Assembly: GCA_964247135.1 (NCBI GenBank)
Contig: CAXTTL010000027.1
Span: forward strand, 1 to 31,821
Length of the DNA stretch: 31,821 nt
Direction: 5' to 3'
Origin: an uncultured Deinococcales bacterium
GTDB taxonomy: Bacteria; Deinococcota; Deinococci; Deinococcales; JAAFIG01
The translations under genes and the position numbers were made by a program. Below the pieces are notes generated by a model, which did no database searches, was not told the DNA's origin, and saw nothing but the letters and a program-made list of their open reading frames with translations. Of the stretch, positions 1 through 31,821 are shown piece after piece (within the stretch, counting starts at the first letter, position 1; every line of letters starts with the position of its first letter).

Positions 1-154
1 GTTTTTAAATAGGTTTTTAAACCTCAGAATCTCGAGATTGTCTGTTCAAGCTCGAGATTTTTTGTTGATTCAGCTTTTGTAAAGCCTTTTGGTATCTGAT
101 GAACTGTCTTCTCACCGACCTGGGTTTAGACTTTAAAATGTTTTGGAGGAATTC

Positions 155-1588
155 ATGAAGAAACCCGTTTTTGTTTTGCTGATGGTCGTGTTGTTTGGTT
201 GGGCTAATGTGAACGCCCAAGCCTTCGAGAATTCGCCAGCGCAAGCACTTTTTGACCAGGCATCGTATTATTTGTCATTCAATTATCACGGTTTCTCGGG
301 CACCGACCCGAACAGTGCGGCATTTAATGAGAAGTACCAAAAGCAACTGGATTTGTCGTGTTTTGTGCAGCGTCAAAATTGTGCCTATGACGTGTCGGTG
401 CCGCTGATCAAGGCGATGGTCGAAGAGATCGGCGACGATCACACCAATTACCTCGAGGCGGATGCCGCAGCGGATTTTGTCACCAGCACCACAGGTGACA
501 ACAGCAACGAACAGGTCACGATGGGTTTTATTCCGATTCCGTTCAGTGACGATAAAGGGTACGGCTTGCGGGTGTATGACGTGCTCGAGGGTTCCGGCGC
601 GGCGAGTGCGGGTTTGGCTCGGGGCGACCGAATTATTGCGATCAACCAGCAGGCTTTTGGGCGCGATTTGGCGGCAATGCGCAAGTTGTTGCTCGCCGCC
701 GATGCCTCTGGGCAGGATGTGCGCCTGAGCATTTTGCGTGACGAGCGCACCTTGCTCGAGTTGACCGTGCCTTCGCGCAAGTTGGTGCTCAACAGTTTGC
801 CCTACATGAGCATTAATGGCGGTGTGGCAAGAATTGTGATTCCCGAATTTGTTGGTCCCGCCAAAACCGCGCCGAAATTACACGAGTTGGTCAAACGCGC
901 GATGGATCGTAAGGTCGCTGCGATTGTTGTCGATTTGCGCAATGACCCGGGTGGGGTCAGCACCGAATGTTTGGCTGGGGCGGGCGCTTTTGTTGGCAAT
1001 TACGGGCGTTTGCGCGAATCGCGTTTCGGGCGTTTTCAAGACAATTACCGCGACGGTGGCGTGTACCAAATCGATGAAAAAGGCAAAGAGACCAAAGTCT
1101 ATCAAATTGACAATTCGCAACTTTGGACGGGCAAGCTGGCGGTGCTGGTCAATCAAGATTCGGCATCCTGCTCCGAGTATTTTGCCAGCGACGTTCAATA
1201 CGCCAAGCGCGGCGTGGTGATTGGCGAACAAACCGTTGGCGTGGGCAACACTGGAACACGACTTTTTAACCTGATCAACGGTGGCGGTCTGCAAATCACT
1301 GTCGTCAAGAGTTTTCACTTGGATGGCACGGTTTATTCAGCCAAGGTCACACCGGATGTTTTTATCAAGGACGATCTCGAGGGGTTTGTCTTTACGGGGC
1401 GCGACAACCTGATGGAACGGGCGCTCCAGGAGTTGGGCGTGCGCAACCCTCCAAAAGCTTTGATGAATCAGCCTTTAGACCTGGGGAAGCAAAAGCGTTT
1501 CTGGTTTGAACGCCCCGCCTCTCGCGTCTCGAGCGCCAGCAATTCGCTGCTCGAGCTGGCAAAAAATGCAGCTTGGAGTCTTCAATGA
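155..1588 (+). CDS. S41 family (CtpA-like) secreted serine peptidase with PDZ domain
   Basis: RBS GGAGG before ATG at 155; signal peptide (...ANVNA-Q); PDZ motif GLARGDRIIAIN; S41 motifs VVDLRNDPGG, LVNQDSASCSE and VIGEQT. Confidence 0.88.
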   Translation: MKKPVFVLLMVVLFGWANVNAQAFENSPAQALFDQASYYLSFNYHGFSGTDPNSAAFNEKYQKQLDLSCFVQRQNCAYDVSVPLIKAMVEEIGDDHTNYLEADAAADFVTSTTGDNSNEQVTMGFIPIPFSDDKGYGLRVYDVLEGSGAASAGLARGDRIIAINQQAFGRDLAAMRKLLLAADASGQDVRLSILRDERTLLELTVPSRKLVLNSLPYMSINGGVARIVIPEFVGPAKTAPKLHELVKRAMDRKVAAIVVDLRNDPGGVSTECLAGAGAFVGNYGRLRESRFGRFQDNYRDGGVYQIDEKGKETKVYQIDNSQLWTGKLAVLVNQDSASCSEYFASDVQYAKRGVVIGEQTVGVGNTGTRLFNLINGGGLQITVVKSFHLDGTVYSAKVTPDVFIKDDLEGFVFTGRDNLMERALQELGVRNPPKALMNQPLDLGKQKRFWFERPASRVSSASNSLLELAKNAAWSLQ

Positions 1589-2838
1589 TGCGATTCTTAA
1601 AACCTGTTTTGACCCTGGCTTTTGCCGTCTCGAGTTTGGCGTTTGCCAGTCCGGCACAGGATTTGTTTAATCAAGCCACCTATTATTTGGCGGTTCAGTA
1701 CAACGGGTATTCCAGTGCGGATTACGCCAATTTTAACACCAAGTATCAACCTGCGCTTGACGCGGCTTGTGCCGATTTGGGCGAATCGTGTCCGTTCACG
1801 GCGGCGACGCCGATCATTTTGCAGATGCTGACGGAATTAAACGATGGTCACACGTATTTGCTGACCAAGGAGGCGGCGCTCGAGGCGCAGCGTCAACGGG
1901 CGGGGCTTGGTCCGAGCACCCCCAAAATTGGCATGGTCACGACAACAGTCAAAGACAGTCCCAACAGGTTGATCACAGACTTGTGGGAGGGTGCGCCAGC
2001 CGCTCGAGCCGGTTTGATGCGTGGGGATGTGGTGGTCAGTTTGAACGGCAAAAGCGCTGCCGAGTTTGCCGATACGTTTCAAGTTTCGATTTCCAAAGCC
2101 ATCTCGACGGGCGAGGTGGTGACTTTGGGGGTTTCTCGAGCGGGCAAACCCCTCGAGTTTAAACTCAAAGGCGAGTTGCTGACGGTGCGTTTGCCGTTTT
2201 TGAAAGTTCTGCCAAATGGTCTTGGCGTCATGCGAATCCCAAATTTTGATGTGAACGGTCAGGTCGCCAGCAAAGTGCATGAATTGGTGGGTCAAGCCAA
2301 CAAGCAAAAACTGCGCGGTCTGATTCTGGATTTGCGCGACAATCCTGGTGGTTTGGTCACCGAATTGATGGGCGTCAGCGCCGCATTTTTGCCCAAAACC
2401 AGTTTGACGTTTGCCGCCCGCGACGGCTCGAGTACCTATACCTCTGAAAATGGTGCGGTCAATATTTCGCAGGGTGTTTTGCAGAATATTACGGTGCAAA
2501 CCATCAGCAAGCCGTCCTTATGGAAAGGGTCGCTCGAGGTGCTGGTCAACAGCCGTTCGGGTTCGGCTGCCGAGTACCTGCCGCAATTTTTGCAAGACGC
2601 TAAACGCGCCACCGTGATCGGCGAACCCACCGCTGGGGTTGGCAACACCGGCATCAGCGCTTTCGGTTTGCCCGATGGCAGCGCCCTCTACATTTCGATC
2701 ATACGGGCGCTCAGAGCCGATTCCAGCCCCTTCCCAGAGCGTGTTAGCCCAGACGTGCCAGTGACCGACGACCTCGAGCTTCTGGCGGCTTCTGGGCGCG
2801 ATGTGGTGCTCGAGAAGGCTTTGGAGTTGATGCCTTAA
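1585..2838 (+). CDS. S41 family secreted peptidase with PDZ domain (paralog of the upstream gene)
   Basis: ATGA overlap with the upstream stop; signal peptide (AFA-S); GLMRGDVVVSLNG, LILDLRDNPGG, LVNSRSGSAAE, VIGEPTAG; N-terminus SPAQDLFNQATYYL resembles SPAQALFDQASYYL of the first paralog. Confidence 0.88.
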   Translation: MMRFLKPVLTLAFAVSSLAFASPAQDLFNQATYYLAVQYNGYSSADYANFNTKYQPALDAACADLGESCPFTAATPIILQMLTELNDGHTYLLTKEAALEAQRQRAGLGPSTPKIGMVTTTVKDSPNRLITDLWEGAPAARAGLMRGDVVVSLNGKSAAEFADTFQVSISKAISTGEVVTLGVSRAGKPLEFKLKGELLTVRLPFLKVLPNGLGVMRIPNFDVNGQVASKVHELVGQANKQKLRGLILDLRDNPGGLVTELMGVSAAFLPKTSLTFAARDGSSTYTSENGAVNISQGVLQNITVQTISKPSLWKGSLEVLVNSRSGSAAEYLPQFLQDAKRATVIGEPTAGVGNTGISAFGLPDGSALYISIIRALRADSSPFPERVSPDVPVTDDLELLAASGRDVVLEKALELMP

Positions 2839-2898
2839 GACGGCGATTGAATATGTAGTCAATCAACTCGAGTTCTTTTATGTTGCTCGAGTTTGCGC

Positions 2899-3897
2899 TT
2901 AAACCAATGTTCTTGGTCTTGTCAGGGCAGGTATCACGGTCATCAAGCTCGAGAGTACAACAACACTTGCCAGCGCAATCGCAACGCTGATGGTCAATGC
3001 ATCGGGCGAGACAATTGATTGTCCGCGCAACGCCTGCCAAGTCGTCAAGAGCATCAAGCCGAAATAACCAAGTCCACCCGTCCAGAGCAGTGCCAGTTGA
3101 CGGTTTTGATTTAAGCGCTTTCGTTTTGAGAGCCAAATGCCAAGCAGCGGTATCAGTTGCAGCGCGTGCAAGCCAATAAAATGTCCAATCCGAATGTCGC
3201 CGTGTTGGGTGTTCCAACCGATCAAGGGCAAACCTGGTTCGGCATCTGGTATGGCGCTCGGGCTGCCGATGGTGTGTGCGCCAAGTAAGATGTTGACTTG
3301 TTTGGCTTGTACTGCTTTCAGTTGTATCGCGTTTGGACCCGCGCTGAGCATTGGGGTCAGCAAACCAACGGCGGTGACGACCAAACCAATTCGGATTGCT
3401 GAAGCAATGACTGGCTGTTGACGCAACCCGCGCCAAACGGCGATTAAAAGTACGACAAAAGCCGCAAACATGGTAAAAATGCCGATGGTCATGGCAATCC
3501 AGAGTGCGGAATCGAACGGCGTGGTGTAATTAAAGTGCATTGGGCGTGCTCGGGTGGCTTGGATCAGAATCATGCCAATCTCGAGGCTGAGAATGATGCC
3601 GATCACGCTGGCGGCAATGTTGGCGCTGCGGCGGGTTTTGCCGTTGGTGATGCCGATGAGCCAGATCAGGGCGAATGCCATGCAAAGGATTGAGACGGAG
3701 AACTTAAAGAGTTTTGACCAGGCGGGCGTGTTGATGATGGCGGTGGCTCGAGGGTCGAAGATCAAGCCCAAAATGCTGACGATCAATGTGCCGCTGGTGA
3801 TGGCTGCCAGAATGGTCAGGGGCAGGTTGGTCTGTCTGAAAGAGGCGATAAATCGGAGGGCTGAACTTGATGGGGTGCTCGAGGTCGCTGGGTTCAT
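2899..3897 (-). CDS. Multi-pass integral membrane protein of unknown function, probable TetR target
   Basis: 332 aa with about 8 hydrophobic segments; HFIGLHALQ motif; AGGAG RBS upstream; divergent from the TetR gene. Confidence 0.75.
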   Translation of the reverse strand: MNPATSSTPSSSALRFIASFRQTNLPLTILAAITSGTLIVSILGLIFDPRATAIINTPAWSKLFKFSVSILCMAFALIWLIGITNGKTRRSANIAASVIGIILSLEIGMILIQATRARPMHFNYTTPFDSALWIAMTIGIFTMFAAFVVLLIAVWRGLRQQPVIASAIRIGLVVTAVGLLTPMLSAGPNAIQLKAVQAKQVNILLGAHTIGSPSAIPDAEPGLPLIGWNTQHGDIRIGHFIGLHALQLIPLLGIWLSKRKRLNQNRQLALLWTGGLGYFGLMLLTTWQALRGQSIVSPDALTISVAIALASVVVLSSLMTVIPALTRPRTLV

Positions 3898-3928
3898 GGT
3901 GGTCTCCTGTGGTTGTTCTCAATTTTCT

Positions 3929-3992
3929 ATCTAATCACTGCTTAATATCCGAACAGTGATAAGATATGCTATAATCTGAACAATGTCAAGAT
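3929..3992. promoter_or_regulatory. Three imperfect 19-bp TetR-type operator boxes plus an extended -10 for a leaderless TetR transcript
   Basis: ATCTAATCACTGCTTAATA (3929-3947), ATCCGAACAGTGATAAGAT (3947-3965), ATCTGAACAATGTCAAGAT (3974-3992); TGcTATAAT at 3967-3975, 7 nt before the ATG at 3983. Confidence 0.65.
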
Positions 3993-4633
3993 CACTGCTC
4001 GAAAACACGCCCAAACACGAGCCGTACCACCACGGCAACCTGCACGCCACGCTGCTCGAGACGGCGCGTTTGCTGGTCGAAGAACATGGCATTGACGGCT
4101 TTAGCCTGCGCGAACTCGCCCGACGGGCTGGGGTCAGCCCCGCCGCGCCCTACCATCACTTCAAAGACAAGGCTGCGCTCATTCAAGCCTTGGCTGAGGA
4201 AAGCCAAATACGGCTTGGGATCGCCTCGCAACACGCCATCAAAGGCATTGACGACCCAATGCAAAGACTGTCGGCGCTGGGGGTGGCATACGTGCTTTAC
4301 GCCTTCGAGCACCCAAGCGAATTTCGCATCATGTTTAGACAAGAACTGCGCTCACCGCTGGGCGAACTCGAGCAACCCGACACTGAACCCGACCCAGCCT
4401 TTGTGCTCTTAAAACAAATCCTGATCGAATGCCGCGAGGCGGGCTGCATTCCCATCACCAGCGAGAAGGCGCTCGAGATCGCGTCCATCAACACCTGGGC
4501 GTTGGTGCACGGACTTGCCACCCTGATTATCGACGGACCGCTGTCGCACAGCTTTCGCACCAAACAGCAAGTGATCGAACTGACCCGCCAGGTGACGGGC
4601 GGGTCGCTCGCGCAACAAATTGCTGGCGCATAA
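3983..4633 (+). CDS. TetR/AcrR family transcriptional regulator (WHG-type C-terminal domain)
   Basis: YHHGNL...FSLRELARRAGVSPAAPYHHFKDK helix-turn-helix; WALVHGLATL C-terminal motif. Confidence 0.93.
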   Translation: MSRSLLENTPKHEPYHHGNLHATLLETARLLVEEHGIDGFSLRELARRAGVSPAAPYHHFKDKAALIQALAEESQIRLGIASQHAIKGIDDPMQRLSALGVAYVLYAFEHPSEFRIMFRQELRSPLGELEQPDTEPDPAFVLLKQILIECREAGCIPITSEKALEIASINTWALVHGLATLIIDGPLSHSFRTKQQVIELTRQVTGGSLAQQIAGA

Positions 4634-4672: not shown

Positions 4673-4679
4673 GGTCGTT

Positions 4680-9270: not shown

Positions 9271-9289
9271 CCTTCAAAACGCCTGTACA

Positions 9290-9322: not shown

Positions 9323-9474
9323 AGACACGGTTGAAACTTCATTTCGTGATATGCAGAAAAGAGATGTTTCGTTGTACATGAACCGAGTCCAAACCTGACA
9401 AGCAAACTTCCACGTGTTAAGCTTCATTACGGTGCTGACGCGCCGTGATTTTATTTTCGCGGCTCGAGCCTCTA

Positions 9475-9510
9475 TTGACAAACGTTTGCCCCAGGGTAAA
9501 CAGCTTGGAG
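9475..9510 (+). promoter_or_regulatory. Probable purA promoter and RBS
   Basis: TTGACA (9475-9480), TAAACA (9497-9502), GGAG (9507-9510). Confidence 0.5.
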
Positions 9511-9516
9511 TCAGAA

Positions 9517-10731
9517 ATGCCAGGAATTGCAATTATTGGCGCCCAGTGGGGCGATGAAGGCAAAGGAAAAGTCACGGATTTTCTCGCACCGGACGCGCAT
9601 TGGGTCGTGCGCTATCAGGGTGGCGCGAACGCTGGGCATACGATTGTGCTGCCCGATGTGACCTTTAAACTCAATCTCTTTCCTTCGGGCGCGGTGCGTC
9701 CTGGCGTCAAAATCGTGCTCGGTGACGGCATGGTGATTGACCCTTGGAAATTTAAAGACGAACTCAAATACCTGAGAGACCACGGTCTAAACCCAGAAGT
9801 TTACGTTTCAGACCGTGCGCATTTGGTTTTGCCGCATCACAAATTTGTTGACGGCAAGAACGATTTTGTTGGCACGACGGGGCGCGGCATCGGACCCGCC
9901 TATGCCGACCGCGCACGCCGCATTGGCGTGCGGGCGGGTGATCTCAGCGATGCCAACACCCTGCGCGAAAGGCTCGAGCGATTGATCGAAGCCAAACCCA
10001 ACAGCACGGCGGGCGTCAACTGGACGAGTGTCGATAAAGCCTATGTGGACATGGCAGAAGTCCGTGACATCATCTCGCCTTACGTGCGCGACACGGGCAC
10101 GATGCTGCGCGAGGCGCTGGCGCAAAACCAAAACGTCTTGTTTGAAGGCGCTCAAGCCACGCTGTTGGACCTCAATTACGGCACCTACCCTTACGTCACC
10201 TCGAGCCACCCGACTGTGGGCGGCGTGATCGTCGGGGCTGGCGTGAACCACAAGCACATCAACAAAGTCTACGGCGTGGCGAAAGCCTTCACCAGCCGCG
10301 TCGGACATGGACCGTTCCCGACCGAAGTCTTTGGCGACCTCGAGCATCGGTTGCGCGGCGAACGCGATGCTCCAGGTGCGGAGTACGGCACCACCACCGG
10401 TCGCCCAAGGCGCATGGGTTGGTTTGACACCAAACTGGTGCGTTACGCCAGCGAGGTCAACGGCTTTGATGGTTTGGCACTCACCAAACTCGATTTCTTG
10501 TCGGGCTTTGACACCGTCAAAATTGCCATCGACCACGACGAGCACGGCATGGCAATTCTCGAGGAGATGCCAGGTTGGGGCGATTTGACGGGGATTACCA
10601 AGCGCGAGAACCTGCCCAAGGAAGTCTTGCATTACATTGCCCGAATTGAAGAGCTGGTCAATTGCCCAGTGGCGATTTTTGGTACGGGGCAAGCTCGAGC
10701 CGAAACCTTTGGGCATGTCAGTTGGAGCTAA
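9517..10731 (+). CDS. purA: Adenylosuccinate synthetase
   Basis: GAQWGDEGKGK, RYQGGANAGHT, GTTGRGIGPAY, FEGAQ, GTYPYVTSS, GTTTGRPRR, LTKLD. Confidence 0.98.
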   Translation: MPGIAIIGAQWGDEGKGKVTDFLAPDAHWVVRYQGGANAGHTIVLPDVTFKLNLFPSGAVRPGVKIVLGDGMVIDPWKFKDELKYLRDHGLNPEVYVSDRAHLVLPHHKFVDGKNDFVGTTGRGIGPAYADRARRIGVRAGDLSDANTLRERLERLIEAKPNSTAGVNWTSVDKAYVDMAEVRDIISPYVRDTGTMLREALAQNQNVLFEGAQATLLDLNYGTYPYVTSSHPTVGGVIVGAGVNHKHINKVYGVAKAFTSRVGHGPFPTEVFGDLEHRLRGERDAPGAEYGTTTGRPRRMGWFDTKLVRYASEVNGFDGLALTKLDFLSGFDTVKIAIDHDEHGMAILEEMPGWGDLTGITKRENLPKEVLHYIARIEELVNCPVAIFGTGQARAETFGHVSWS

Positions 10732-12478: not shown

Positions 12479-14650
12479 TCACCGTTTCTGACGGGTTTTC
12501 CAAAAGTTCAACAAACCCTCAAGCGCCAATGGTTCGTTTTGTGGCGCAAGTTTTCCGGCTTGGTCTTTGTCGGACAAACCATGACAGGAGGTACAGACTC
12601 GCACCTCGCCAGGTTGGAAACTGAGCCAGTAGCGTTCTCGCACCACGCCCGTACCTGCGCCGTCGGTGAGTTGCCAGGACAAGGCTCGAGTGGCGGGCAC
12701 AAACGCGGCGAATGAACCGTCGCTTGCCACTTTGACGCTGTTGGGTACGCCCGTATTGCTTGGGTTGCTCGAGACTGCGGCAGCGTCGTGAAGTGGTTGT
12801 GCCAACACGCGTCGTCCGTCTCGAGGTGTGCTTGTGCCGCCAAGCCCACGGATCAAATCGCCTTGAAAGAATTGCAGGTTGGTCACATCGTAAACCTTAT
12901 CGCCCGCTTTGAAGCTCGAGGAGACGGTTTTCACGCCGCCTGGAACTTGCAGGTTAAACGGTTGTTGCTTGTCGAGGTCGTCTCGGGTGGTGACGTTACG
13001 CCCAACCAGCAACGCCAGGTTGTTTTGCTTTAAATAGGTTTTCAGATTCTCGAGCGTGACCCCTGTTTTGCTAAAAACATTCTGCTCGGGTTGAGGCAGT
13101 GGCGTTGTGGTCACATTTGGTCGAACTCGAGCACGCAATTCGGTGGGTTGCAGTTCCCAGAGCGTGCCATCAAATTCGAGTTTGGAATCTGGATTCCACC
13201 AACTGACTTTCTTTTGAATGCCTGCGGTGAGCGCTGTCGTGGCTTTAAAAACACCGCCTGTTTTCTCGAGTTTGCGCAACCTGAAATCGTAAACGGATTT
13301 GTTCGGGTCGTACTCGCCGTGGGTTTCAAAGGTGTGCGCGGCAATCAGATCGCCGCTCGAGAGCATCAGCGGGTCGCGGTAATGCCCTGAGTCGTTGGCG
13401 CTGGGTTGCGCGGTTGGTTCGACCACATCTCGGGTGTCGCGGTGCGTGATGTACTGAACGATTGCCGTTTCGGGGCTTTGGCTTGGCGGTGCGGACAATG
13501 CCACGACTTGCCCGCTGCCGTGCGAGTAAAACTCTGGCGCGTCGATGCCGTAATACATGCCTGGGGTGTTCGGGTCTTCCTTGATTTGCAAGAAATTCTC
13601 GATTGGGTTTGGATTGACCCTCGGGTACTGCTGGTAATACTCGGTGATAAGCGGATCATCGTTGCGTCCGCTGCCCAAGTACGAATGCAGTTCGTGCCGT
13701 CCAAGGTGGTTGATGACCTCAGATTCGGTGCCGTCCTGGTTCATCGTCCACGGAAAAAACTGATTGAAAGTGTGTGGATTGAACGGCGAATTGGCAGGCA
13801 AAGCTTGTGCCACTCGAGGTTCAGGATAAATTTCAGTTCTCGAGGTGGCTTTGGCAGTCACGGCTTCGGATTCGTAATTGAACGTGCCGTAAGTTCCAGC
13901 CTCGTAGGTATCGGTATCGGCTTGCTGGTCGCGTTGCAAATGATCCCATTGGGTAAAAAGCAGTCGCCCGAAACTGTCCACAAACGGCGTGAAGTCACCG
14001 CTTGGCGCGTGGTTGAGGATTTTCAAATTGCCAGTGCTGGCATCCAGACTCCATAGCCCAGAAACCACGGGCGCCTCCTCGTACTCGTCGCGTTGCGGGT
14101 ACAAATGCGCACTGCCATCTCGAGGGCGGTCGGTGGTGAAAATGATGCGGTCATCCGAGCCGTAAATTGGCGAGACATTGTTGTACGCGGGTTGATTGGG
14201 GACTTTGGTGATGACTGGCGTTTGGCTCGGCTCGAGGTTGCTGATTTCATACAACTGCCAGCGCGTGGTTGGCTCTGTGTATTGTTCGGTGGGCGCTCCA
14301 ACCACCATCGAAAAAATGATTTTCTTACCGTCCCAGGAGGGGCTGGGGTCGCGCACCGCAATCGCGTTCGCGCCTTGCAAACCGTCCATACCGTAACCTG
14401 CGGCTTTGGTCAGGTTTTTCAGGCTGCCGTCAGGGTAGCGAATCCACAAATCCCCACCTCGAGGCACGGCTTGAATCTCTGAACGTTGATTGCCAAAAAC
14501 GCTGGCGATGGTGGTGAAGTCATCACGTATGGGGACTTGGGTGACAAAAACGATGCCGTTGCTGGTTTTGGAAATCGGGTTGATCGGTGCGGAAGCCGCA
14601 CAAGCCGTCACGCCAATCAAGAGCATCAAGCCAACTCGAGTTACGGTCAT
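12479..14650 (-). CDS. HzsA-related (hydrazine synthase alpha-like) beta-propeller lipoprotein with a C-terminal heme-c motif
   Basis: Lipobox VTA-C; propeller-like repeats (DPSPSWDGKKIIFS, SPIYGSDDRIIFTTDR, GRLLFTQWDH); C-terminal DGSFAAFVPA...WQLTD...FQPGEVRVCTSCHG (CxxCH). Confidence 0.7.
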   Translation of the reverse strand: MTVTRVGLMLLIGVTACAASAPINPISKTSNGIVFVTQVPIRDDFTTIASVFGNQRSEIQAVPRGGDLWIRYPDGSLKNLTKAAGYGMDGLQGANAIAVRDPSPSWDGKKIIFSMVVGAPTEQYTEPTTRWQLYEISNLEPSQTPVITKVPNQPAYNNVSPIYGSDDRIIFTTDRPRDGSAHLYPQRDEYEEAPVVSGLWSLDASTGNLKILNHAPSGDFTPFVDSFGRLLFTQWDHLQRDQQADTDTYEAGTYGTFNYESEAVTAKATSRTEIYPEPRVAQALPANSPFNPHTFNQFFPWTMNQDGTESEVINHLGRHELHSYLGSGRNDDPLITEYYQQYPRVNPNPIENFLQIKEDPNTPGMYYGIDAPEFYSHGSGQVVALSAPPSQSPETAIVQYITHRDTRDVVEPTAQPSANDSGHYRDPLMLSSGDLIAAHTFETHGEYDPNKSVYDFRLRKLEKTGGVFKATTALTAGIQKKVSWWNPDSKLEFDGTLWELQPTELRARVRPNVTTTPLPQPEQNVFSKTGVTLENLKTYLKQNNLALLVGRNVTTRDDLDKQQPFNLQVPGGVKTVSSSFKAGDKVYDVTNLQFFQGDLIRGLGGTSTPRDGRRVLAQPLHDAAAVSSNPSNTGVPNSVKVASDGSFAAFVPATRALSWQLTDGAGTGVVRERYWLSFQPGEVRVCTSCHGLSDKDQAGKLAPQNEPLALEGLLNFWKTRQKR

Positions 14651-22202: not shown

Positions 22203-25200
22203 ATGCACAATAGGGTTGTGCTTGAACCTGCGATCAGTTTGATGCTTCGACTTTCGGGCACCTGCGTGCTTGAACAATCGGGGCGACTCGAGACGCTGGG
22301 GCGACGCTCGATGGCGCTCCTGGCGTATTTGGCGCTCGAGGGGGTCACACCGCGCTCCAGGCTGGCAGGTTTGTTGTGGGCGGATGTCGGTGAGGACCGC
22401 GCCAGGGCAAATTTGCGCCAGGAGATTTACCGCGTTAACCAAATTGCACCGTTGATTGAAAATGATCGTTTTAACGTCTGGTTGGCAAAAAACGTGCGAT
22501 CTGACCTCGAACAATTCGATGAATCAAGTGGCGAATTTGCCCAGGGTTTGGAAATTGACGACGCGCCGGACATCATGGACTGGTTGTACGCCCAGCGCGA
22601 AAGCTTATCTGAGCAACGCCGCGCCAACCTCGAGGATCAATTGAAGCAACTCGAGAATGCGGGTTCGTACCGTCAGGCGGCGGTGATTGCCCGAAAGTTG
22701 GTGGCGCTCGAGCCGCTATCGGAGGCGGCGCACGTGCGAATGCTGCGCTGCTTGTATTTAAGCGATGATCGGATTGGGGTCAGGACCGGAATCCTCGAGT
22801 TGCGGCGTTTGCTGCGCGAGGAACTGGGGGTTGAACCGCTGCCCGAAACGGCGGCGATGCTCGAGTCTCTGGAGGCGGGGCAATTGCAGTCCAGCCCAAG
22901 CAGCAAACGTCCAAGCATCCCTTTGAATGTGTTGCGCCCTCCAAGGTTGGCGGGTGTCAAGGCACTCAGGGCGCTGGTGCAGGGACTCGAGCGCGGCAAA
23001 GCCGTGTTCGTTGAGGGCGAGGCGGGCGCGGGCAAATCCAGGTTGCTGCACGATCTGGCGGCATCGCGGAGCGCCCTGGGTGGGCATGTGCTCGAGGTTC
23101 GCGCCCGCGAATCGGATCAGAGTTTGGCGTTCGCGCCCTTGATCACGGCGTTGCGCGATTTGTGGGAAGCCGGTTTTCAACCCCAGGTCGAACCGATCTG
23201 GCAACTCGAGGTCTCGCGTCTGCTGCCAGAGTTGCGCCCCAGCGGTAACCTGGAGGGGCTGGTTCAAATTGAAATGCCAACCGAAGCCAAAGTCCGTTTT
23301 CTGGAAGGCTTAACGCGTTACGTGCTGGCATTCGCCAATGACAGCGGCTTGGTGATTTTTGATGATTTGCACTGGGCGGACAGCGCCACGCTCGAGTTTC
23401 TGGCATATGCCGCCCCGCGAATCCTGGGCGAACAGGTCGGGATTTTGGGCGGTTATCGTCCGCTCGAGGTCGGTGCAAATTTGCGCCATCTGATCGGGCA
23501 ACTCGAGCGCGAGGGTTTGGCGGTCACGCAAAAACTCGAGGCTTTGGAATTGCCCGAGGTGCGCGAGTTGTTGTTCGGCATCGATCCCAAAGCCGCCGCC
23601 CTGGCACAAGCGATGCACGCCGCAACGGGCGGCAATCCCTTGTTCGTGGTCGAAACCCTGAAATACCTGCTCGAGACGGGGCAACTCGACGCCAACTTTC
23701 AACTTTCGGGGCAACTGCGTCCTCCAGAACGGATTGGGGCGCTCCTCAAAAACCGGCTCGAGCGCCTGGAAACCGACACGCGCCGCGTGCTGGCGTGTCT
23801 GGCGGTGGCGGGCGCAGACTTTAGCGCTAGCCTTGCAGGCACAGTGCTCGAGTTACCAGAATTGCGGGTTGCCGAGGGTTTGGGCGAAGCCGAAGGGGCG
23901 CAAGTCATTACCTCAGACCCCAGTTTCACCCATGATCTGCTGCGAGCCACCACCCTCGAGCTGACGCCAAACAGCGTGCGCCAAACCCTGCACCGTTTGG
24001 TCGCGCAAGAACTCGAGTTGCGGCAAGCCGCCCCGAGCCGGATTGCCGCGCACTTGCTGCAAGCGGGGCAAAACAGCGAGGCGACGGTCTGGTTGATCGC
24101 CGCCAGCGAGATCGACCTCGAGACATTCCTGCCGCAAACCGCCTTGGAGCGCCTGAATTTGGCGCTGATGCAGGCGCTCACGCCCAACCTCGAGGTTCAA
24201 GTTCGCACCCTTCGGGCGCGGGCGTTGACTGGCGTCAGGCGTGCCACCGAGGCTGAAGTCGAAGCCAATCTGGCGCTCGAGCTTGCCAAAAAACTAAAAC
24301 GCCCCGACCTCGAGCGGCGGGCGAACCTGGCGTTGTCTGGCGCCTTGATCGAACTGGCACGACCCTTGGAGGCTGCCAAAATCACGCGTCTGGCGATGCA
24401 GGATTTGTCGCAAAGCACCGAATTTGTTGCCCACGAACAACTGGGGTTTAGTTTGATGATGCTGGGCGATTTTGAAGCCGCCAGCCTCGAATTCACGGCT
24501 GCCAGCCCCGAAAGTACCGACGCGCTGTTTGGACGCGCCATCACCGCCTGGCACGTCGGCGATTTTTCACAGATGCTCGAGTTGGCGCACAGCGTTCAAA
24601 CCCGAAACCTGCCCGATTTCAAACGCGCCAGGTTTCTCAACCTCGAGGGGATCGGGCTTTGGACGTTGGGACGCTTTCATGAAGCCGAACAAAAATACAA
24701 CCAAGCCATTGGCTTGTGCGAAAGCGATCAAGCCTTGCAAGCCGTGGCGATTTACCTCTCGAGAAGCAGCCTGCACCTCAGCATGGGTGAGCTGCACAAG
24801 TCGATCAAAGACATTGACTTGGCGGTCAAACTCGAGGAACTGGCGGGCAACACCAGCAACCTTGCCGATGCCGTGCATCAAAAAGCCTGCATCCATTACC
24901 TGTGCGGCGATTACCTTCAGGCGCGCGAGTTGGTTGATGATGCGATAAGGCGCTGGTTTGAACCTGGCGCGAAAGCCTACACGACCGCCACCAAAGCCGT
25001 GATCCAAAGCGCCCTGGGACAAAACCCAGAACCCACCGCCAGCTCGGCACTCGAGATGGCACGCCAATCACGGCACACCTTTGCCCTGGCACTGACCTTG
25101 CGGGCTTGCAGTGAGGTCGCCCTCGATCTTGGTCAAGCAAAACTTGCCCTGCAACACGCCACTGAGCTGAAAACCCTGGCAAGGCAACACGGAATGCTCG

Positions 25201-25463
25201 AGCAACTGGGTTACGCGCACCTCTACAGCGCCCTGGCGGGCGAGGCAAAATACTTTAACGCCGCGCTCGAACTTTCCAGTTTACTGCCCAACCTCGAGAT
25301 CACCTGGCGAGCCGCGCAAGGCATCAATGACACCAAACTGGCAATTCGTACCTTGGAGAGCGTTTACGCCAACACGCCCGAACACTTGCGCTCTTTTTGG
25401 CAGACCAGCAAACCAGGGATTGCCTATAAAAGCCTCTCAGGGCACGAAAAACCAACGGTTTGA
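22203..25463 (+). CDS. Large transcriptional regulator: winged helix + BTAD + AAA/STAND ATPase + TPR
   Basis: ALLAYLALEG...RSRLAGLLW...ARANLRQ; BTAD (DWLYAQRE, EPLSEAAH, ELGVEPLPET); Walker A GEAGAGKS; Walker B IFDDLHWAD; TGGNPLF; FTHDLLR; TPR-like C-terminus. The true start may be GTG at 22218. Confidence 0.9.
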   Translation: MHNRVVLEPAISLMLRLSGTCVLEQSGRLETLGRRSMALLAYLALEGVTPRSRLAGLLWADVGEDRARANLRQEIYRVNQIAPLIENDRFNVWLAKNVRSDLEQFDESSGEFAQGLEIDDAPDIMDWLYAQRESLSEQRRANLEDQLKQLENAGSYRQAAVIARKLVALEPLSEAAHVRMLRCLYLSDDRIGVRTGILELRRLLREELGVEPLPETAAMLESLEAGQLQSSPSSKRPSIPLNVLRPPRLAGVKALRALVQGLERGKAVFVEGEAGAGKSRLLHDLAASRSALGGHVLEVRARESDQSLAFAPLITALRDLWEAGFQPQVEPIWQLEVSRLLPELRPSGNLEGLVQIEMPTEAKVRFLEGLTRYVLAFANDSGLVIFDDLHWADSATLEFLAYAAPRILGEQVGILGGYRPLEVGANLRHLIGQLEREGLAVTQKLEALELPEVRELLFGIDPKAAALAQAMHAATGGNPLFVVETLKYLLETGQLDANFQLSGQLRPPERIGALLKNRLERLETDTRRVLACLAVAGADFSASLAGTVLELPELRVAEGLGEAEGAQVITSDPSFTHDLLRATTLELTPNSVRQTLHRLVAQELELRQAAPSRIAAHLLQAGQNSEATVWLIAASEIDLETFLPQTALERLNLALMQALTPNLEVQVRTLRARALTGVRRATEAEVEANLALELAKKLKRPDLERRANLALSGALIELARPLEAAKITRLAMQDLSQSTEFVAHEQLGFSLMMLGDFEAASLEFTAASPESTDALFGRAITAWHVGDFSQMLELAHSVQTRNLPDFKRARFLNLEGIGLWTLGRFHEAEQKYNQAIGLCESDQALQAVAIYLSRSSLHLSMGELHKSIKDIDLAVKLEELAGNTSNLADAVHQKACIHYLCGDYLQARELVDDAIRRWFEPGAKAYTTATKAVIQSALGQNPEPTASSALEMARQSRHTFALALTLRACSEVALDLGQAKLALQHATELKTLARQHGMLEQLGYAHLYSALAGEAKYFNAALELSSLLPNLEITWRAAQGINDTKLAIRTLESVYANTPEHLRSFWQTSKPGIAYKSLSGHEKPTV

Positions 25464-25713: not shown

Positions 25714-25734
25714 GTTGAGGCTCGAGTTTTGGTT

Positions 25735-27786: not shown

Positions 27787-27853
27787 TGCGTCTGGCATGA
27801 CTGAAATGCTCAAGGTGGGAGGACTTACGTTACTGGATTGTGAGCACAAAGCA

Positions 27854-27882
27854 TTGACAAAAACTCATAACAACAATATCAT
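27854..27882 (+). promoter_or_regulatory. Sigma70-type promoter for a leaderless transcript
   Basis: TTGACA (27854-27859), 17-bp spacer, TATCAT (27877-27882), ATG 7 nt later. Confidence 0.8.
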
Positions 27883-27889
27883 TGTCATC

Positions 27890-28335
27890 ATGATTCCACC
27901 GTTCCAAACAAACGGTAACCTCCCACCAGGAATTCACGACGCCACTTGGACCCAAATCACCACACACTTCGGACACACCCCACACCGACTTCGACTGCTC
28001 GCAGGATTGCTCGACGCAGCCCAAGCCCTACACCAAGCAGGCAGTCAATGGATTCTGGTCAACGGCAGTTTTGTCACCAGCAAAATACAACCAAACGACA
28101 TTGACGCTTGCTACGACGACACCAACCTTGACTACATATTACTCGAACAACTCGAACCAAGCCTGGTGGACTTCAGCAACCGTCGCGCTGCACAAAAACC
28201 AGATTTCACTGCGAATTCTTCCCCGCCCGAGCCGTTGCCGACAGTGCAGGACGACAATTTCGAGATTTCTTTAGGCATGACCGCAACAACCAAGACAAAG
28301 GCATTGTAAGGTTGAACTTACCCATCGTCTTTTGA
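27890..28335 (+). pseudogene. DUF6932-like (nucleotidyltransferase-fold) gene with a single frameshift
   Basis: MIPPF..GNLPPGIH, NGSFVTSK.PNDIDACY; after the A5 run at 28194-28198 the -1 frame continues TRFHCEFFPA...FRDFFRHDRNNQDKGIVRLNL to TGA at 28333-28335, next to the RBS of the following gene. Confidence 0.75.
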
Positions 28336-28346
28336 AAGGAGCATTT

Positions 28347-28745
28347 ATGATCGAGAATGATTTACAACTGCGGGTCAGCAAAACCAGATTGGCAGAATTC
28401 AAAATAACACTTCAATCACTCGAGCAAGATGACTTAAGCTCAAAAGCAAAAACCATGCGTCGCAATGCGGTGCTCAGTGTGATTGCTGAACTCGAGGAAG
28501 ACATTCAAAGTTTTGAGCACTTACGCGGCAGCCAAGCTGAAATTTTGAATCTGAGCAATCTCGAGGAACTGCCGAATCAATTGATTCAAGCGCGGGTGGC
28601 TCGAGGGTTCACGCAAGCAGAACTGGCGGCAAAGTTGAAGATGAAACCTCAACAAATTCAACGTTACGAGGCAAGCAAGTACGCCAGCGCGAGTCTTGCC
28701 AGGGTGCTCGAGGTGGCAAGGGTTTTGCAAAACACAAGAAAGTAA
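28347..28745 (+). CDS. XRE/Cro-CI helix-turn-helix protein (antitoxin-like partner)
   Basis: AAGGAG RBS; MIENDLQL..., LIQARVARGFTQAELAAKLKMKPQQIQRYEA. Confidence 0.88.
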   Translation: MIENDLQLRVSKTRLAEFKITLQSLEQDDLSSKAKTMRRNAVLSVIAELEEDIQSFEHLRGSQAEILNLSNLEELPNQLIQARVARGFTQAELAAKLKMKPQQIQRYEASKYASASLARVLEVARVLQNTRK

Positions 28746-28811
28746 ACCTCGAGTCTTCAAAATCCCAGCAGCAACTCGAGAATGCTGTGAACCTCGAGTT
28801 GAAAGCATGAC
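28740..28811 (+). repeat. 72-bp imperfect direct repeat, copy B
   Basis: AAGTAAACCTCGAGTCTTCAAAATCCCAGCAGCAACTCGAGAATGCTGTGAACCTCGAGTTGAAAGCATGAC. Confidence 0.92.
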
Positions 28812-28932
28812 CGCCGTGGTTGGTGGTCAAAGCGTTTGAAGTTGGAATGCAAATTGTGATGGCATTGCAGAATAAACCACAAAAGAAATCTCGAGCGTGA
28901 AACAAAGTTTTGACTACGGATTATCCTAGAGA

Positions 28933-29487
28933 CTAATGTTCCCAAATAAGTATTCCTTCACCGTCAAATACTTCAAAGAGAATTTTTTGTGTTGCTTGAG
29001 CAATCTCTTGTAAGCAATCTGAGCTTATTTCAGATCCTAACTGTAAATTGATTGGGCTTCCTGTTTGGAATAAACCAATTACTAGCTGATAACTAATGGC
29101 AGCTTTTACAGAATCTTCAATTAATGCACGAGTAAAGTTGTCACCGTGAAAAATAGAATAAATATAAGTTTCATAAGTTAGATAACTTATATTATGTTTT
29201 TCTAACCATGGATCACCTTTTCTCGCGCTCGCATATTCAATTATAACGCAATTATTAATGTTCTCTTTTAGATAATTAGTAGCGATTTCAGTCGCTATTG
29301 AAACTGAACTGTGTCCTTTGTTAATACCAGAATGCAGGTTTGGGAAATTTATAGCTTCTGGTAATAAGTTAAAGCTTCCAGTTTCAATTTTGAATTTCGA
29401 GTATAAAGAGGATAACGGAAGTCCAGAAACAAGTTGTTTTCGAGCATAAGTTACTAAGTCAGTATGAGTGGGTTCAATTTGTTCCAT
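28933..29487 (-). CDS. Putative immunity protein
   Basis: Strongly AT-rich 184-aa ORF 11 nt downstream of the toxin-like ORF; AGAGG RBS; no CTCGAG site. Confidence 0.65.
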   Translation of the reverse strand: MEQIEPTHTDLVTYARKQLVSGLPLSSLYSKFKIETGSFNLLPEAINFPNLHSGINKGHSSVSIATEIATNYLKENINNCVIIEYASARKGDPWLEKHNISYLTYETYIYSIFHGDNFTRALIEDSVKAAISYQLVIGLFQTGSPINLQLGSEISSDCLQEIAQATQKILFEVFDGEGILIWEH

Positions 29488-29498
29488 TTAAACCTCTT

Positions 29499-30722
29499 TC
29501 ACTTTGGCTCTATTCTCCCATCAGGATAGATACGCCACCATTTTCCACTGGGGTCTTTCCAGTCATAGTGCCCTCCGACTGGATCAGGATGATCCATATC
29601 TGGACGCAAAGTTTCTCCCGTGGTCGGATTCACCCAATTTCCATCCTTGTCTCCTGGAACACTTCCAGGTCGCCCTTTCCAAACCCAATCGGGTCCTGGA
29701 CTAGTACCAGGGGTAGCAGGAATTGTTGGTGGTGTGGATTTTGGCTGTTCACTTTCCTTCTTCTCCATTTGATGAACAAGCCACTTACCAGATTCTATAA
29801 CCTGATCGAACAACGACACCACCGAACCAAATAACTCCGCACCCGCTTGTTGACCCGAACTCGAGCACAAAAAGATACACGTGACAATAGCAGCACCAGC
29901 AAGAGGAGCACCTTCCAAAGTATTGACTGATAATGCCCCTAAAGCAGCCGCATCCTGATTCGAGCCACCCGAGCTACCACCACCCTTTGGAGAATACTCG
30001 AGTTTAATCCCGCCTTTACCATCTCGAACAACTTTGCCATTCTCGAGCGCGACAATCAAGCCCCGAATTTCATTTTCGTGATACTTGTGATTGTCAATCT
30101 TTCCTTTTAAACCAGTCCAGTATTCCAAACGTTCTCGAGGTGTCAATTGATTATATGCTTGCGAGTTGTCCATTCGGTTCAAGTAATAATCGGCTTTTCG
30201 GTCACTTCCAAGTTCTTGTCGCATTGCCAGTTGTGCTCGAATACGTGAGGCTTCAAGTTCTGCTCGCTCTTTAGCCGCCCCAGTCGAATTGTTCGCTTGT
30301 TTTTCAAGATCAGTTGCCTTTGCATCTAAATCTTTATTGGTGTCACATTCATCCGAAGCAAGTGATTGAATACATTTTCCAGCAGCGTTGTAATATCCTT
30401 GTGGCGTGACGGTCACACCACTCCCACCCGCTTGAGGCGTAACCCCACTCGCCGTTCCAGGACTCGAGCCACTCGGTGGTGTCACCCCAGAACTTGTTGG
30501 CGTGCTCGAGGTTGGCGTGCTTGCATTTGGTGGTGTGACATTGCTGGCACTTCCAGGCAAACCAACTATCGGACTCGAGTTTGGTGCGGTCACACTGCTG
30601 GCGGTGCTAATGTTCGTGATGGCTGTTGGTGTGATTGAAACTGGGGCAGCAAGGGCGGTGTTGCTCGAGAAACCAGCGGCTGGCGTTGGGGTTTGGGTGT
30701 TGCTGCTCGAGGGTACTATCAC
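29499..30722 (-). CDS. Orphan polymorphic toxin C-terminal module with an Ntox37-like tip
   Basis: S/T/P-rich linker, helical region, hydrophobic segment, then PGPDWVWKG...GNWVNPTTGETLRPDMDHPDPVGGHYDW...WRIYPDG; no signal peptide; start uncertain (GTG at 30722 overlaps the upstream TGA; the ORF track gives 30779). Confidence 0.65.
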   Translation of the reverse strand: MIVPSSSNTQTPTPAAGFSSNTALAAPVSITPTAITNISTASSVTAPNSSPIVGLPGSASNVTPPNASTPTSSTPTSSGVTPPSGSSPGTASGVTPQAGGSGVTVTPQGYYNAAGKCIQSLASDECDTNKDLDAKATDLEKQANNSTGAAKERAELEASRIRAQLAMRQELGSDRKADYYLNRMDNSQAYNQLTPRERLEYWTGLKGKIDNHKYHENEIRGLIVALENGKVVRDGKGGIKLEYSPKGGGSSGGSNQDAAALGALSVNTLEGAPLAGAAIVTCIFLCSSSGQQAGAELFGSVVSLFDQVIESGKWLVHQMEKKESEQPKSTPPTIPATPGTSPGPDWVWKGRPGSVPGDKDGNWVNPTTGETLRPDMDHPDPVGGHYDWKDPSGKWWRIYPDGRIEPK

Positions 30723-30958
30723 GGCGTTGGTGCTTTCCCAATTTGCCACACACCAGTTTCCCCACCCGCCCAAAACCATTCGCCTTCCATCGGGCGTCGC
30801 TTGAGCGCAGCCCGAATCAGTTCAAGTTCAACCCGCGAGGCAAACCGAGTCTTGGAATGCCAAACCTCGAGATTGGCGTTTTGTCCAGCGCCACGCAAGA
30901 AACTGGCGGCGCGGTTGATTGCCAAATCAAAAATCGCAGCTCGAGCGGCGGAATTCAT
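30719..30958 (-). CDS. Small hypothetical protein translationally coupled to the NUDIX gene
   Basis: ATGA overlap with the NUDIX stop; 79 aa, WHSKTRFASRV...EWFWAGG...GKAP. Confidence 0.65.
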   Translation of the reverse strand: MNSAARAAIFDLAINRAASFLRGAGQNANLEVWHSKTRFASRVELELIRAALKRRPMEGEWFWAGGETGVWQIGKAPTP

Positions 30959-31404
30959 GACAGTTCTTGAAGCGCCAGTTTGCACCAAGCACGAACTTCA
31001 TTGCCCAGCGGCAACTTCTCGAGTTGAGCAGCATTGCACCAGACAAACGGTTTGTCCTCGCTGGCGATCAAACCTTCATACCCAGATTCTGGACGGGCAA
31101 AATAAATCAAATCAATGTGCTCATGCCCCGCACTAATCCCCTCGAGTTGGATTCCTCTGGGGCGGGTGAGTTGGCGTGGCAATTCACTTTCGGGTGTGTA
31201 CTTGAGCTGGTCTGAAGCGATCAATTGCACCTGAATTCCTGCTTCTTCGAGCACTTCGCGGGTTGCAGCGTGGTCAGGCAGTTCGTTGGTTTCGATGTGC
31301 CCACCTGGCGGCAACCACTTGCCAAGCTTGCGGTGTTCGTGCAACAACACTTGGGCTTGCCAGACCACAAAAACGGCAACCGTAAAATCCCGAGTCAGGC
31401 TCAT
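30955..31404 (-). CDS. NUDIX hydrolase
   Basis: WLPPGGHIETNELPDHAATREVLEEAG Nudix box; HEHIDLIY; TAAGCT -10 box 6 nt upstream. Confidence 0.93.
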   Translation of the reverse strand: MSLTRDFTVAVFVVWQAQVLLHEHRKLGKWLPPGGHIETNELPDHAATREVLEEAGIQVQLIASDQLKYTPESELPRQLTRPRGIQLEGISAGHEHIDLIYFARPESGYEGLIASEDKPFVWCNAAQLEKLPLGNEVRAWCKLALQELS

Positions 31405-31553
31405 GAACTCAGCTTAACGGATGAAATGCTCGAGATTGACAAAACCTTAAGACCTTGATTTTACGCGTAGGTCACAACATTGCTCGAGTTTTGTAGGTCT
31501 GTCGTGCTGGAATTGTTTTGCCTTTGACCGCCCGAATTGCTATGCTAACTCAC

Positions 31554-31821
31554 GTGAATTTTGTTGTGAACCGTAACTTTAAATCCGTTTGTGTCGCTTT
31601 ACTGACCATCGCCAGCCTTTTTTGCAGCGGCGCTTTCGCTCAGACGCGACCCGCCAAGCTGGTGACACGCCAATTGATCTGGCCACTCGACGGGGCGACC
31701 GTCTTCGTCAACGGCAATCAATTCACCTCGGCATATCCGCAACGCACCGTGGACTCTCGAGCTTTGCTGCCTTTACGCGAACTCTCGAAGTTGCTGTCCA
31801 TTGGGCTTGAGCCTATCGCCG
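31554..31821 (+). CDS. Partial secreted protein with a copper-amine-oxidase N-terminal (stalk)-like domain; runs off the window
   Basis: Not in the ORF track; GTG at 31554 after TGcTATGCT; my translation is MNFVVNRNFKSVCVALLTIASLFCSGAFA-QTRP...VFVNG...RALLPLRELSKLL, open to the window end. Confidence 0.65.
   Translation, partial: MNFVVNRNFKSVCVALLTIASLFCSGAFAQTRPAKLVTRQLIWPLDGATVFVNGNQFTSAYPQRTVDSRALLPLRELSKLLSIGLEPIA

Follow-up and report, generated by a model that had tools for sequence, protein, structure and literature searches.

CTCGAG as a highly iterated palindrome of a Deinococcales family

The stretch of DNA considered here, 31,821 nucleotides from an uncultured Deinococcales bacterium (the window), raises the question of why a single palindromic hexamer, CTCGAG, should recur throughout it, within genes and between them, and of what keeps it there. 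The window is contig C27 of the genome bin G000, which comprises 5,091,702 bases in 386 contigs (the longest of 115,556 bases) at 52.7% GC and 84% completeness, and in which no 16S rRNA gene was found. An earlier reading of the letters alone (the original prediction) had likened the motif to HIP1 (GCGATCGC), the highly iterated palindrome of cyanobacteria, had argued that codon bias could not account for it and had proposed a co-distributed orphan methyltransferase of CTCGAG or TCGA specificity. The first two parts of that interpretation were borne out by the present analysis, and the third has so far found no support.

An exact hexamer in excess, independently of coding

The hand count of about 220 sites in the window was close to the exact number, 219, of which the first lies at 31-36 and the last at 31756-31761. 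Dinucleotide-preserving shuffles of the window gave a mean of 5.39 copies (standard deviation 2.14, maximum 11), and none of 100 reached 219. Observed/expected (O/E) counts under Markov models, which had been proposed earlier as a check, were then obtained for the whole of G000, where CTCGAG is present 33,925 times, once per 150 bases or about 6,660 per Mb, and is the top-ranked hexamer by count. The O/E ratio was 24.8 at order 0 and 35.2, 14.4, 3.45 and 1.24 at orders 1, 2, 3 and 4 respectively, the low values at high orders arising because most occurrences of the sub-words of CTCGAG come from CTCGAG itself; once the motif was masked from the Markov background, the ratio was 36-56. CTCGAG is a true highly iterated palindrome, and the lineage that carries it is a family of Deinococcales, here called f1, which is represented by 19 genomes in five genera, G000 included.

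The excess belongs to the full hexamer exactly. In G000 the nine pairs of one-off neighbours of CTCGAG were found at 0.5-1.7 times expectation, except for CTAGAG/CTCTAG at 0.08, and of a total of 54,610 TCGA tetramers 33,925 lie within CTCGAG, the 20,685 outside it amounting, by our own arithmetic, to about 1.05 times expectation. Flanking preferences are weak (G at -1, 39%; A at -3, 37-41%; no base above 41%), and extension of the palindrome beyond CTCGAG is at chance level. A longer motif, GCTCGAGC, was considered and rejected at 0.84 of the expectation for independent flanks, while CCTCGAGG is disfavoured, at 0.44 of that expectation. Genome-wide, 159 sites start exactly two bases past a stop codon, against about 35-55 at neighbouring offsets, a placement which puts the final A of the stop codon at the weakly preferred -3 position.

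The weak flanks and the lack of palindrome extension indicate that CTCGAG is not a repeat element. A dispersed element containing CTCGAG, akin to miniature inverted-repeat transposable or repetitive extragenic palindromic elements, or an artefact of assembly, library or binning, might be suspected in a 386-contig metagenome bin, as tetranucleotide binning would favour motif-rich contigs; however, the flanks are nearly random, a longer palindrome is absent, the site spacing is geometric, the sites stand in frame within intact conserved genes at positions common to independent assemblies of other species and genera, and a relative, G011, assembled as a single 5.1-Mb contig, has 23,515 of them, so that this explanation, of negligible probability, is refuted by shared positions, conservation and the single-contig genome.

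For the coding sequence, 3,740 open reading frames (ORFs) were used, these being crude non-overlapping calls of at least 150 amino acids made with no gene finder, and the 'non-coding' class includes short genes. Codons were permuted within each gene, keeping the protein sequence and the per-gene codon usage, in five synonymous shuffles. While G000 has 26,787 coding sites, the shuffled sequences had 3,723-3,822, a 7.1-fold difference. By codon phase, 16,399, 4,174 and 6,214 sites were observed in phases 0, 1 and 2, against 2,917, 303 and 544 after shuffling, corresponding to 5.6-, 13.8- and 11.4-fold excesses. A codon-preserving shuffle that erased the enrichment had been named beforehand as the result that would overturn the original prediction; the excess survived it, with every phase enriched and intergenic DNA denser in sites than coding DNA (Table 1), and the argument that codon bias alone is insufficient therefore holds. 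Intergenic GC in G000 is only about 46%.

Among the Leu-Glu dipeptides of G000, 16,399 of 21,229 (77%) are spelled CTCGAG, compared with about 5% expected from codon use outside Leu-Glu, where CTC provides 15% of Leu and GAG 33% of Glu codons. The realised fraction of possible sites is 43% in phase 1 and 47% in phase 2. GAGCTC, made of the same two codons in reversed order, has 0 copies in G000. Leu-Glu has an O/E of 2.38, the highest among dipeptides with more than 200 occurrences, and Ser-Ser one of 1.63. The remaining explanation from coding, that CTCGAG is a by-product of codon, dipeptide or oligonucleotide bias, with favoured CTC and GAG codons in a Leu-Glu-rich proteome, can draw on the predominance of phase 0 (16,399 of the 26,787 coding sites) and on a Thermus-like genome, G022, in which codon usage wholly accounts for a modest excess, 3-fold over composition (0.78 times the shuffle). 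Against it stand the 7-fold excess over the shuffle in G000 and the 5-8.5-fold excess in three other genomes of the family, the low use of CTC and GAG outside Leu-Glu (just 15% and 33%), the high density of intergenic DNA and the count of zero for GAGCTC. This explanation is likewise refuted, and we give it practically no weight.

The force also reaches the protein level. When 19 purA orthologues of the order were aligned by codon, sites at alignment positions 678, 905, 1044, 1290 and 1426 were common to the genera g1, g2 and g5, and several sites recurred in three or four of the family's genera. Two of these positions, 1044 and 1290, are occupied in the outgroups by Ala-Gly, Leu-Ala or Tyr/Phe-Glu in place of Leu-Glu, and CTCGAG sites thus also arise through amino-acid change.

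Placement along the genome is close to random. Gaps between sites are near-geometric (mean 148 bases, coefficient of variation 0.96, longest 2,644 bases), every contig has at least 2.5 sites/kb, and the variance/mean ratio of counts per 0.5-1 kb window is 0.91-1.12, as for control hexamers, so that the sites behave as independent events of uniform intensity. Distances between neighbouring sites in non-coding DNA are random beyond 12 bases, which rules out regular spacing or diminishing returns between sites beyond that range. A site-to-site distance of 6 was never seen, because it would create GAGCTC. In tRNA genes, 10 sites were found in 5,129 bases against 34 expected at genome density, and the 100-base flanks have 10.9/kb. 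Several of the 66 tRNA genes predicted by ARAGORN carry CTCGAG in stems (e.g. C14:11589-11740, C157:3282-3938); some of the predictions are doubtful, for example that of a 95-base tRNA-Arg.

Conservation, distribution and residence time

G000 was aligned with its congeners G004 and G005 over 168 kb at 84.7% identity. Between congeners 2,030 of 2,481 CTCGAG sites (81.8%) were intact, compared with 43% for all hexamers, placing CTCGAG first in conservation among the 890 hexamers that occur 150 times or more, and its one-off neighbours were below average, at 25-46% intact. Single changes fell about equally often at the outer, middle and central positions (68, 65 and 76), leaving no CpG or 5-methylcytosine (m5C) signature. 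Where a Leu-Glu pair was conserved in the protein, the CTCGAG spelling was kept in 554 of 609 cases (91%), against an expectation of 35.5% derived from retention in other contexts (CTC 51.9%, GAG 68.4%), and Leu-Glu was replaced in 9.4% of cases when spelled CTCGAG versus 23.5% otherwise. Of the sites in a three-genome comparison over 38.8 kb, 206 were common to all the genomes, 86 were shared by two and 58 were confined to one. On a population-genetic reading of the three estimates listed in Table 1, the scaled strength S of the force would be about 3-4.

The trait was surveyed in 151 genomes of the order. The order is indicated to be Deinococcales by the distribution of DdrB, a single-strand-binding repair protein of the Deinococcus lineage, which among 14 control genomes had a match in D. 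radiodurans only, and which is present in 3/3 genomes of the sister family f3 and in 9 of the 18 other members of f1. Within f1, DdrB was found in genus g5 (8/8) and g3 (1/2) and was not found in g1 (which includes G000), g2 or g4. A search with purA gave only matches of 40-46% identity, to a mixture of Terrabacteria. The labels Deinococcus-like (f3/g7), Thermus-like (g9) and Meiothermus-like (g13) are guesses based on DdrB, genome size and GC, and not verified names. CTCGAG is dense in 19/19 genomes of f1 and weaker elsewhere in the order (Table 1); in the genome pieces of f1 examined, density is steady at 4.5-7.0/kb over a GC range of 50-61%. A weaker codon-independent excess in G116, G128 and G147 means that the trait is extreme in f1 and not unique to it within the order, and the Thermus-like G022 serves as a clean negative control. 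Sites in purA of family f4 mostly lie at positions other than those of f1, which indicates that accumulation in the two families was largely independent.

Mobile or foreign DNA is poorer in the motif. The two longest motif-free gaps of G000, both on contig C13 (4757-6745 and 11892-14536), are AT-rich islets with 0 sites and a GC of 26-31%, whose ORFs (163, 393 and 360 amino acids) had no match in Pfam; both islets were probably inserted recently from a foreign source. Contig C75, which encodes a conjugative type IV secretion module, has half the usual motif density, at about 2-3.5 sites/kb, and a recently arrived restriction-modification (R-M) pair of MvaI/BcnI type on C189 has 0-1 sites. Motif density thus tracks the time a piece of DNA has spent in the lineage. 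A scan of viral contigs for three clustered sites yielded, among the matches listed, mostly contigs of 58-71% GC that, unlike the family, are not GGCC-poor and in which CTC and GAG are presumably usual codons; the scan is uninformative on phages of the family.

The features located in this analysis are collected in Table 1. The three examples of codon phase given in the original prediction, at 452 (Leu-Glu, phase 0), 1528 (Ser-Ser, phase 2) and 2003 (Ala-Arg, phase 1), were all correct. It had also placed the phenomenon in a non-cyanobacterial genome, in agreement with which G000 is not an oxygenic cyanobacterium, having just 47 copies of CGATCG and no match to Photo_RC, and had placed the responsible gene outside the window, whose ten largest ORFs include no methyltransferase. 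The window further encodes, at 143-2838 (+), two tandem S41 peptidases with PDZ domains (ORFs 143-1588 and 1573-2838; Pfam), at 12479-14650 (-) a 723-amino-acid protein with a hydrazine-synthase-alpha middle domain, and at 22203-25463 (+) a 1,086-amino-acid BTAD-AAA-TPR regulator.

Table 1. Features of the window and of G000, with site densities, shuffle ratios and estimates of scaled strength
Feature	Position or sample	Strand	Value	Basis
CTCGAG palindrome	window 31..31761	none	219 copies, 6.9/kb	exact count against shuffles
CTC GAG = Leu-Glu (context LEA), phase 0, in ORF 143-1588	window 452..457	+		translation; Pfam
gtC TCG AGc = Val-Ser-Ser, phase 2, in ORF 143-1588	window 1528..1533	+		translation
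gCT CGA Gcc = Ala-Arg-Ala, phase 1, in ORF 1573-2838	window 2003..2008	+		translation; Pfam
purA (adenylosuccinate synthetase)	window 9445..10731	+	6 CTCGAG sites	Pfam
Coupling protein (778 aa) and VirB4/TraC-like ATPase (878 aa)	G000 C75 (L342:10387-17938)		about 2-3 sites/kb over genes	
R-M/palindrome-avoidance loci (examples)	G000 C14:36040-37936, C178:2930-4752, C189:4077-5632, C207:3-1650, C320:1061-2985			
Sites/kb	inside long ORFs		6.5	
Sites/kb	outside long ORFs		7.2	
Sites/kb	short gaps between ORFs		9.5	
Sites/kb by gap type	convergent; tandem; divergent		10.6; 9.6; 7.4	
Sites/kb	family f1 (19/19 genomes)		4.3-6.8	
Sites/kb	f2		0.3-2.6	
Sites/kb	f3		0.01-0.27	
Sites/kb	f4		0.7-2.9	
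Sites/kb	g9		about 0.7-1.0	
Sites/kb	g13		1.4-3.0	
Sites/kb	g22		2.9-3.4	
Sites/kb	g24		3.1	
Observed/shuffled	f1 members G004; G005; G011		8.5; 6.7; 5.0	synonymous shuffle, genome pieces
Observed/shuffled	G116 (g13)		3.4 (63% of Leu-Glu spelled CTCGAG)	synonymous shuffle, genome pieces
Observed/shuffled	G128 (g22)		3.5 (from only 18.5 kb)	synonymous shuffle, genome pieces
Observed/shuffled	G147 (f2)		2.9	synonymous shuffle, genome pieces
Observed/shuffled	G022 (Thermus-like)		0.78	synonymous shuffle, genome pieces
Scaled strength S			4.2	Leu-Glu spelling equilibrium
Scaled strength S			3.7	suppression of synonymous loss
Scaled strength S			2.8	non-coding motif/transition-neighbour ratio

What maintains the motif

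CTCGAG is maintained by a directional force that is sequence-exact, blind to coding, exerted per site, long-acting, pervasive and of modest scaled strength. Since the force is exact, coding-blind and per-site, something must read the whole hexamer, which would be a dedicated CTCGAG reader. Our preferred reading, which we hold tentatively and below even confidence, is a transmission bias (molecular drive) in repair or recombination, possibly acting via DNA uptake, in preference to direct selection. A putative protein would read CTCGAG and favour the allele bearing the site, either while mismatches or heteroduplexes are repaired or when taken-up DNA recombines, with the result that conversion or replacement of one-off sequences would outpace the loss of sites. 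The density would be kept under its free equilibrium by constraints on coding and RNA sequence, and the force would act site by site, independently, on any resident DNA irrespective of what that DNA encodes.

Several observations weigh against a transmission bias. No reader protein was identified in the analysis, and the divergence data fit both a transmission bias and direct selection per site and so cannot separate them. Known uptake sequences are asymmetric 9-12-mers and not 6-bp palindromes, and ComEC (PF03772), found in 18/19 genomes of f1 and in 12/12 sampled from other families, is equally present in lineages with no excess and is therefore non-discriminating, speaking neither for nor against the uptake idea. 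In the three-genome comparison only 3 of 102 one-off ancestral sites had become CTCGAG, which is close to the neutral baseline, where a drive of S = 3-4 predicts an excess of roughly 3-fold, the numbers being small, from mostly coding DNA, and 38.8 kb too little for a gain rate; in the same sample the sites present in two genomes (86) exceed the singletons (58). The crude ORF calls, with short genes left inside the 'non-coding' class, and the tendency of tetranucleotide binning to favour motif-rich contigs count on the same side, although the single 5.1-Mb contig of G011 has its 23,515 sites.

Direct selection, in which each site would confer a small additive benefit, whether by binding a nucleoid or chromosome organiser or as a 'self' watermark read by defence or repair, is rather unlikely in our estimation. 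In its favour, loss of sites at synonymous positions is reduced about 10-fold, CTCGAG is the best-conserved hexamer between congeners, the force is able to change amino acids, S of about 3-4 falls within the weak-selection range, and resident mobile DNA is intermediate in density. From the same kind of conservation evidence, selection was likewise concluded for HIP1 in the available parts of Xu et al. 2018 (PMC5861425). However, the sites are scattered in a Poisson-like manner that shows neither spacing nor diminishing returns beyond 12 bp, about 34,000 separately selected sites would be a heavy load, and no candidate binding protein was found.

A methyltransferase-directed ratchet, as proposed by Elhai for HIP1, is somewhat less probable still. 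On this account a CTCGAG methyltransferase, probably solitary, would mark the sites, and methyl-directed or very-short-patch-like repair would convert near-cognates and restore mutated sites. A palindromic hexamer that is the Type II site of XhoI and PaeR7I would fit a dimeric enzyme of R-M type, and each alternate highly iterated palindrome was accompanied by a matching methyltransferase in what was available of Elhai 2015 (PMC4390886). XhoI-type R-M circulates in the order, with XhoI-family nucleases in 5/23 genomes of f4 and as a pseudogene in f2; in f4 the nuclease is paired with a 340-amino-acid beta-class methyltransferase (e.g. G021:C1:74896-76793; G105:C8), and the genomes with this pair are not depleted in CTCGAG, G021 having 3,937 sites in 2.3 Mb, about 1.7/kb.

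It is in f1 that this account, and with it the orphan methyltransferase of the original prediction, has so far lacked support. Neither the XhoI-family nuclease (PF04555) nor Vsr (PF03852) was found in any of the 19 genomes, G000 included, Vsr being present in 11/151 of the order, and no co-distributed methyltransferase was found in the classes PF00145, PF01555, PF02384, PF07669 and PF02086, in which the specificities of several solitary enzymes are unassigned. The XhoI-linked methyltransferase of G021 is 26% identical to the beta-class enzymes of G000, and as a probe in f1 it gave only 30-47% matches to the catalytic motif, with none at all in the closed G011. Other candidates were patchy: a solitary beta-class methyltransferase on C36, a 466-amino-acid protein on C4 and a 693-amino-acid HsdM-like enzyme, the last also present in f2, f3, f4 and f5, recur in just 5, 6 and 6 of the 18 other f1 genomes respectively. 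No group of C5, beta or gamma methyltransferases (at least 45% identity) was common to more than two of six well-assembled genomes, among the matches listed. The lack of an m5C deamination signature (68, 65, 76) also argues against the ratchet.

Dam-class enzymes are more widespread, in 18/19 genomes of f1 and 10/10 of g13, and were rejected as readers of CTCGAG as they split into two recurrent alpha-class groups of other specificity. Group A matches M.CbeI (PDB 7M6B, E = 2e-94), a GGCC-specific N4-methylcytosine (m4C) enzyme according to the accessible parts of its descriptions (PMC8616854, PMC3425538). Group B overlaps a gene with similarity to the SacI-family nuclease (PF09566, E = 2.7e-6), and a SacI-type system explains the absence of GAGCTC. 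In G011 all methyltransferases are otherwise accounted for: the sole C5 enzyme, also rejected, adjoins an HD-CE gene in an islet with few CTCGAG sites, the M.CbeI-like enzyme is solitary, flanked by a GH76 gene and a release-factor gene, and the others are two Type I HsdM, a Type ISP enzyme and a fused HsdM-like protein. G000 itself holds C5 methyltransferases paired with NgoPII-type (GGCC) and Eco29kI-type (CCGCGG) nucleases, N4/N6 enzymes paired with MvaI/BcnI-type and NotI-like nucleases, a Dam-class methyltransferase paired with a SacI-family nuclease, and further HsdM, two MmeI-like and a 1,499-amino-acid Eco57I-like enzyme. These ordinary R-M pairs fit the extreme avoidance of many other palindromes in G000, where GGGCCC has 1 copy, CGGCCG 3, AGGCCT 4, GGATCC 7 and CCGCGG 11, and GGCC an O/E of 0.02.

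One locus tempers the argument from distribution. Adjacent to Sua5, G000 (C14:36040-39157) has the NgoPII-type nuclease and C5 methyltransferase, while the same locus in congeners (G005:C6, G004:C78) has an M.CbeI-like m4C methyltransferase with an unannotated partner of 376-397 amino acids. Given this isospecific swap at GGCC, the lack of a single conserved orthologue does not disprove CTCGAG methylation; genomes could use different CTCGAG enzymes, and solitary beta-class methyltransferases of unassigned specificity, such as that on C36, do exist.

Unlikely too, to about the same degree as the ratchet, is the more specific proposal that CTCGAG serves as a dense genomic watermark for a methyltransferase-independent system that reads it, in f1 and more weakly in some other Deinococcales. 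The reader would be a factor of repair, recombination or defence by which DNA carrying the motif is favoured or spared, and the motif would so be imposed on all DNA that stays in the cell, conjugative elements, tRNA genes and protein sequences included.

Comparison with known systems

R-M systems normally accompany avoidance of their sites and not a 25-fold excess. CTCGAG shares its recognition sequence with XhoI and PaeR7I, and XhoI-type pairs are found in the sister family f4, but the nuclease is in 0/19 genomes of f1 and the linked methyltransferase has no close homologue there. Digestion of this DNA with XhoI would, barring modification, yield fragments of about 150 bp. In Escherichia coli, very-short-patch repair by Dcm and Vsr is a methyltransferase-linked repair that raises CCWGG and lowers its near-cognates; f1 differs in that Vsr is in 0/19 genomes, the one-off neighbours of CTCGAG are not depleted, and the effect is an order of magnitude larger.

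The uptake signal sequences of Pasteurellaceae and the DNA uptake sequences of Neisseriaceae are short over-represented motifs of coding and non-coding DNA that accumulate by uptake and recombination bias and constrain proteins. They are asymmetric 9-12-mers at about 1 per kb. CTCGAG has a comparable modest preference for 3' ends (convergent gaps 10.6/kb versus divergent 7.4/kb), and ComEC is present; it is, however, a palindrome of exactly 6 bp, has weak flanks and occurs at 6.7/kb. Uptake sequences thus appear, by analogy, to resemble CTCGAG in dynamics and not in form.

No report of CTCGAG hyper-abundance in any genome was found in the literature searched, supplementary oligomer tables lying outside the search. 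The motif is not mentioned in the available portions of Elhai 2015 (PMC4390886) or Xu 2018 (PMC5861425), and was met only as a methylated motif in other taxa. It provides a strong taxonomic signature for binning and marks recently acquired DNA within these genomes. The near-complete genomes of the order with a weaker excess (99-100% completeness) are probably cultured isolates, and if so would make the mechanism experimentally accessible.

The closest parallels are cyanobacterial. In the alternate highly iterated palindromes of HIP1-poor cyanobacteria (GGCGCC, GCsGC and rCCGGy), as far as the available text of PMC4390886 goes, other palindromes, including 5-6-mers, fill the hyper-abundant role; all are cyanobacterial and each has a matching methyltransferase, whereas none was found for CTCGAG. 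HIP1 itself, in those parts of its literature that could be consulted (PMC5861425, PMC4390886, PMC13756078), is a small palindrome rich in GC that recurs across the genome in great excess, whatever the reading frame and outside genes as well, with sites better conserved between relatives than control oligomers, a quasi-periodic distribution on a 10-90 kb scale (Xu 2018, PMC5861425), a lineage-wide occurrence with exceptions, and a mechanism and function that are debated (biased repair, selection, DNA uptake). CTCGAG is likewise short and GC-rich, hyper-abundant, in all frames and non-coding DNA, conserved beyond background and a trait of a whole lineage with exceptions, as the original prediction had sensed in calling it HIP1-like. 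The two differ in sequence and phylum, and CGATCG, with 47 copies and an O/E of 0.03 in G000, shows that this is not HIP1 proper. HIP1 is an 8-mer and CTCGAG a 6-mer. HIP1 goes with DmtA and DmtC, where no matching or co-distributed methyltransferase was found for CTCGAG in the enzyme classes searched, and the density of HIP1 is given as 300-2,700 per Mb (PMC4390886), against about 6,660 per Mb for CTCGAG. Highly iterated palindromes have so far been viewed as an oddity of cyanobacteria, and three decades of work have not settled how they originate or what they do. CTCGAG is an independent and denser case in another phylum, and suggests that such palindromes are a general outcome of a sequence-specific process and not a quirk of cyanobacterial methyltransferases.

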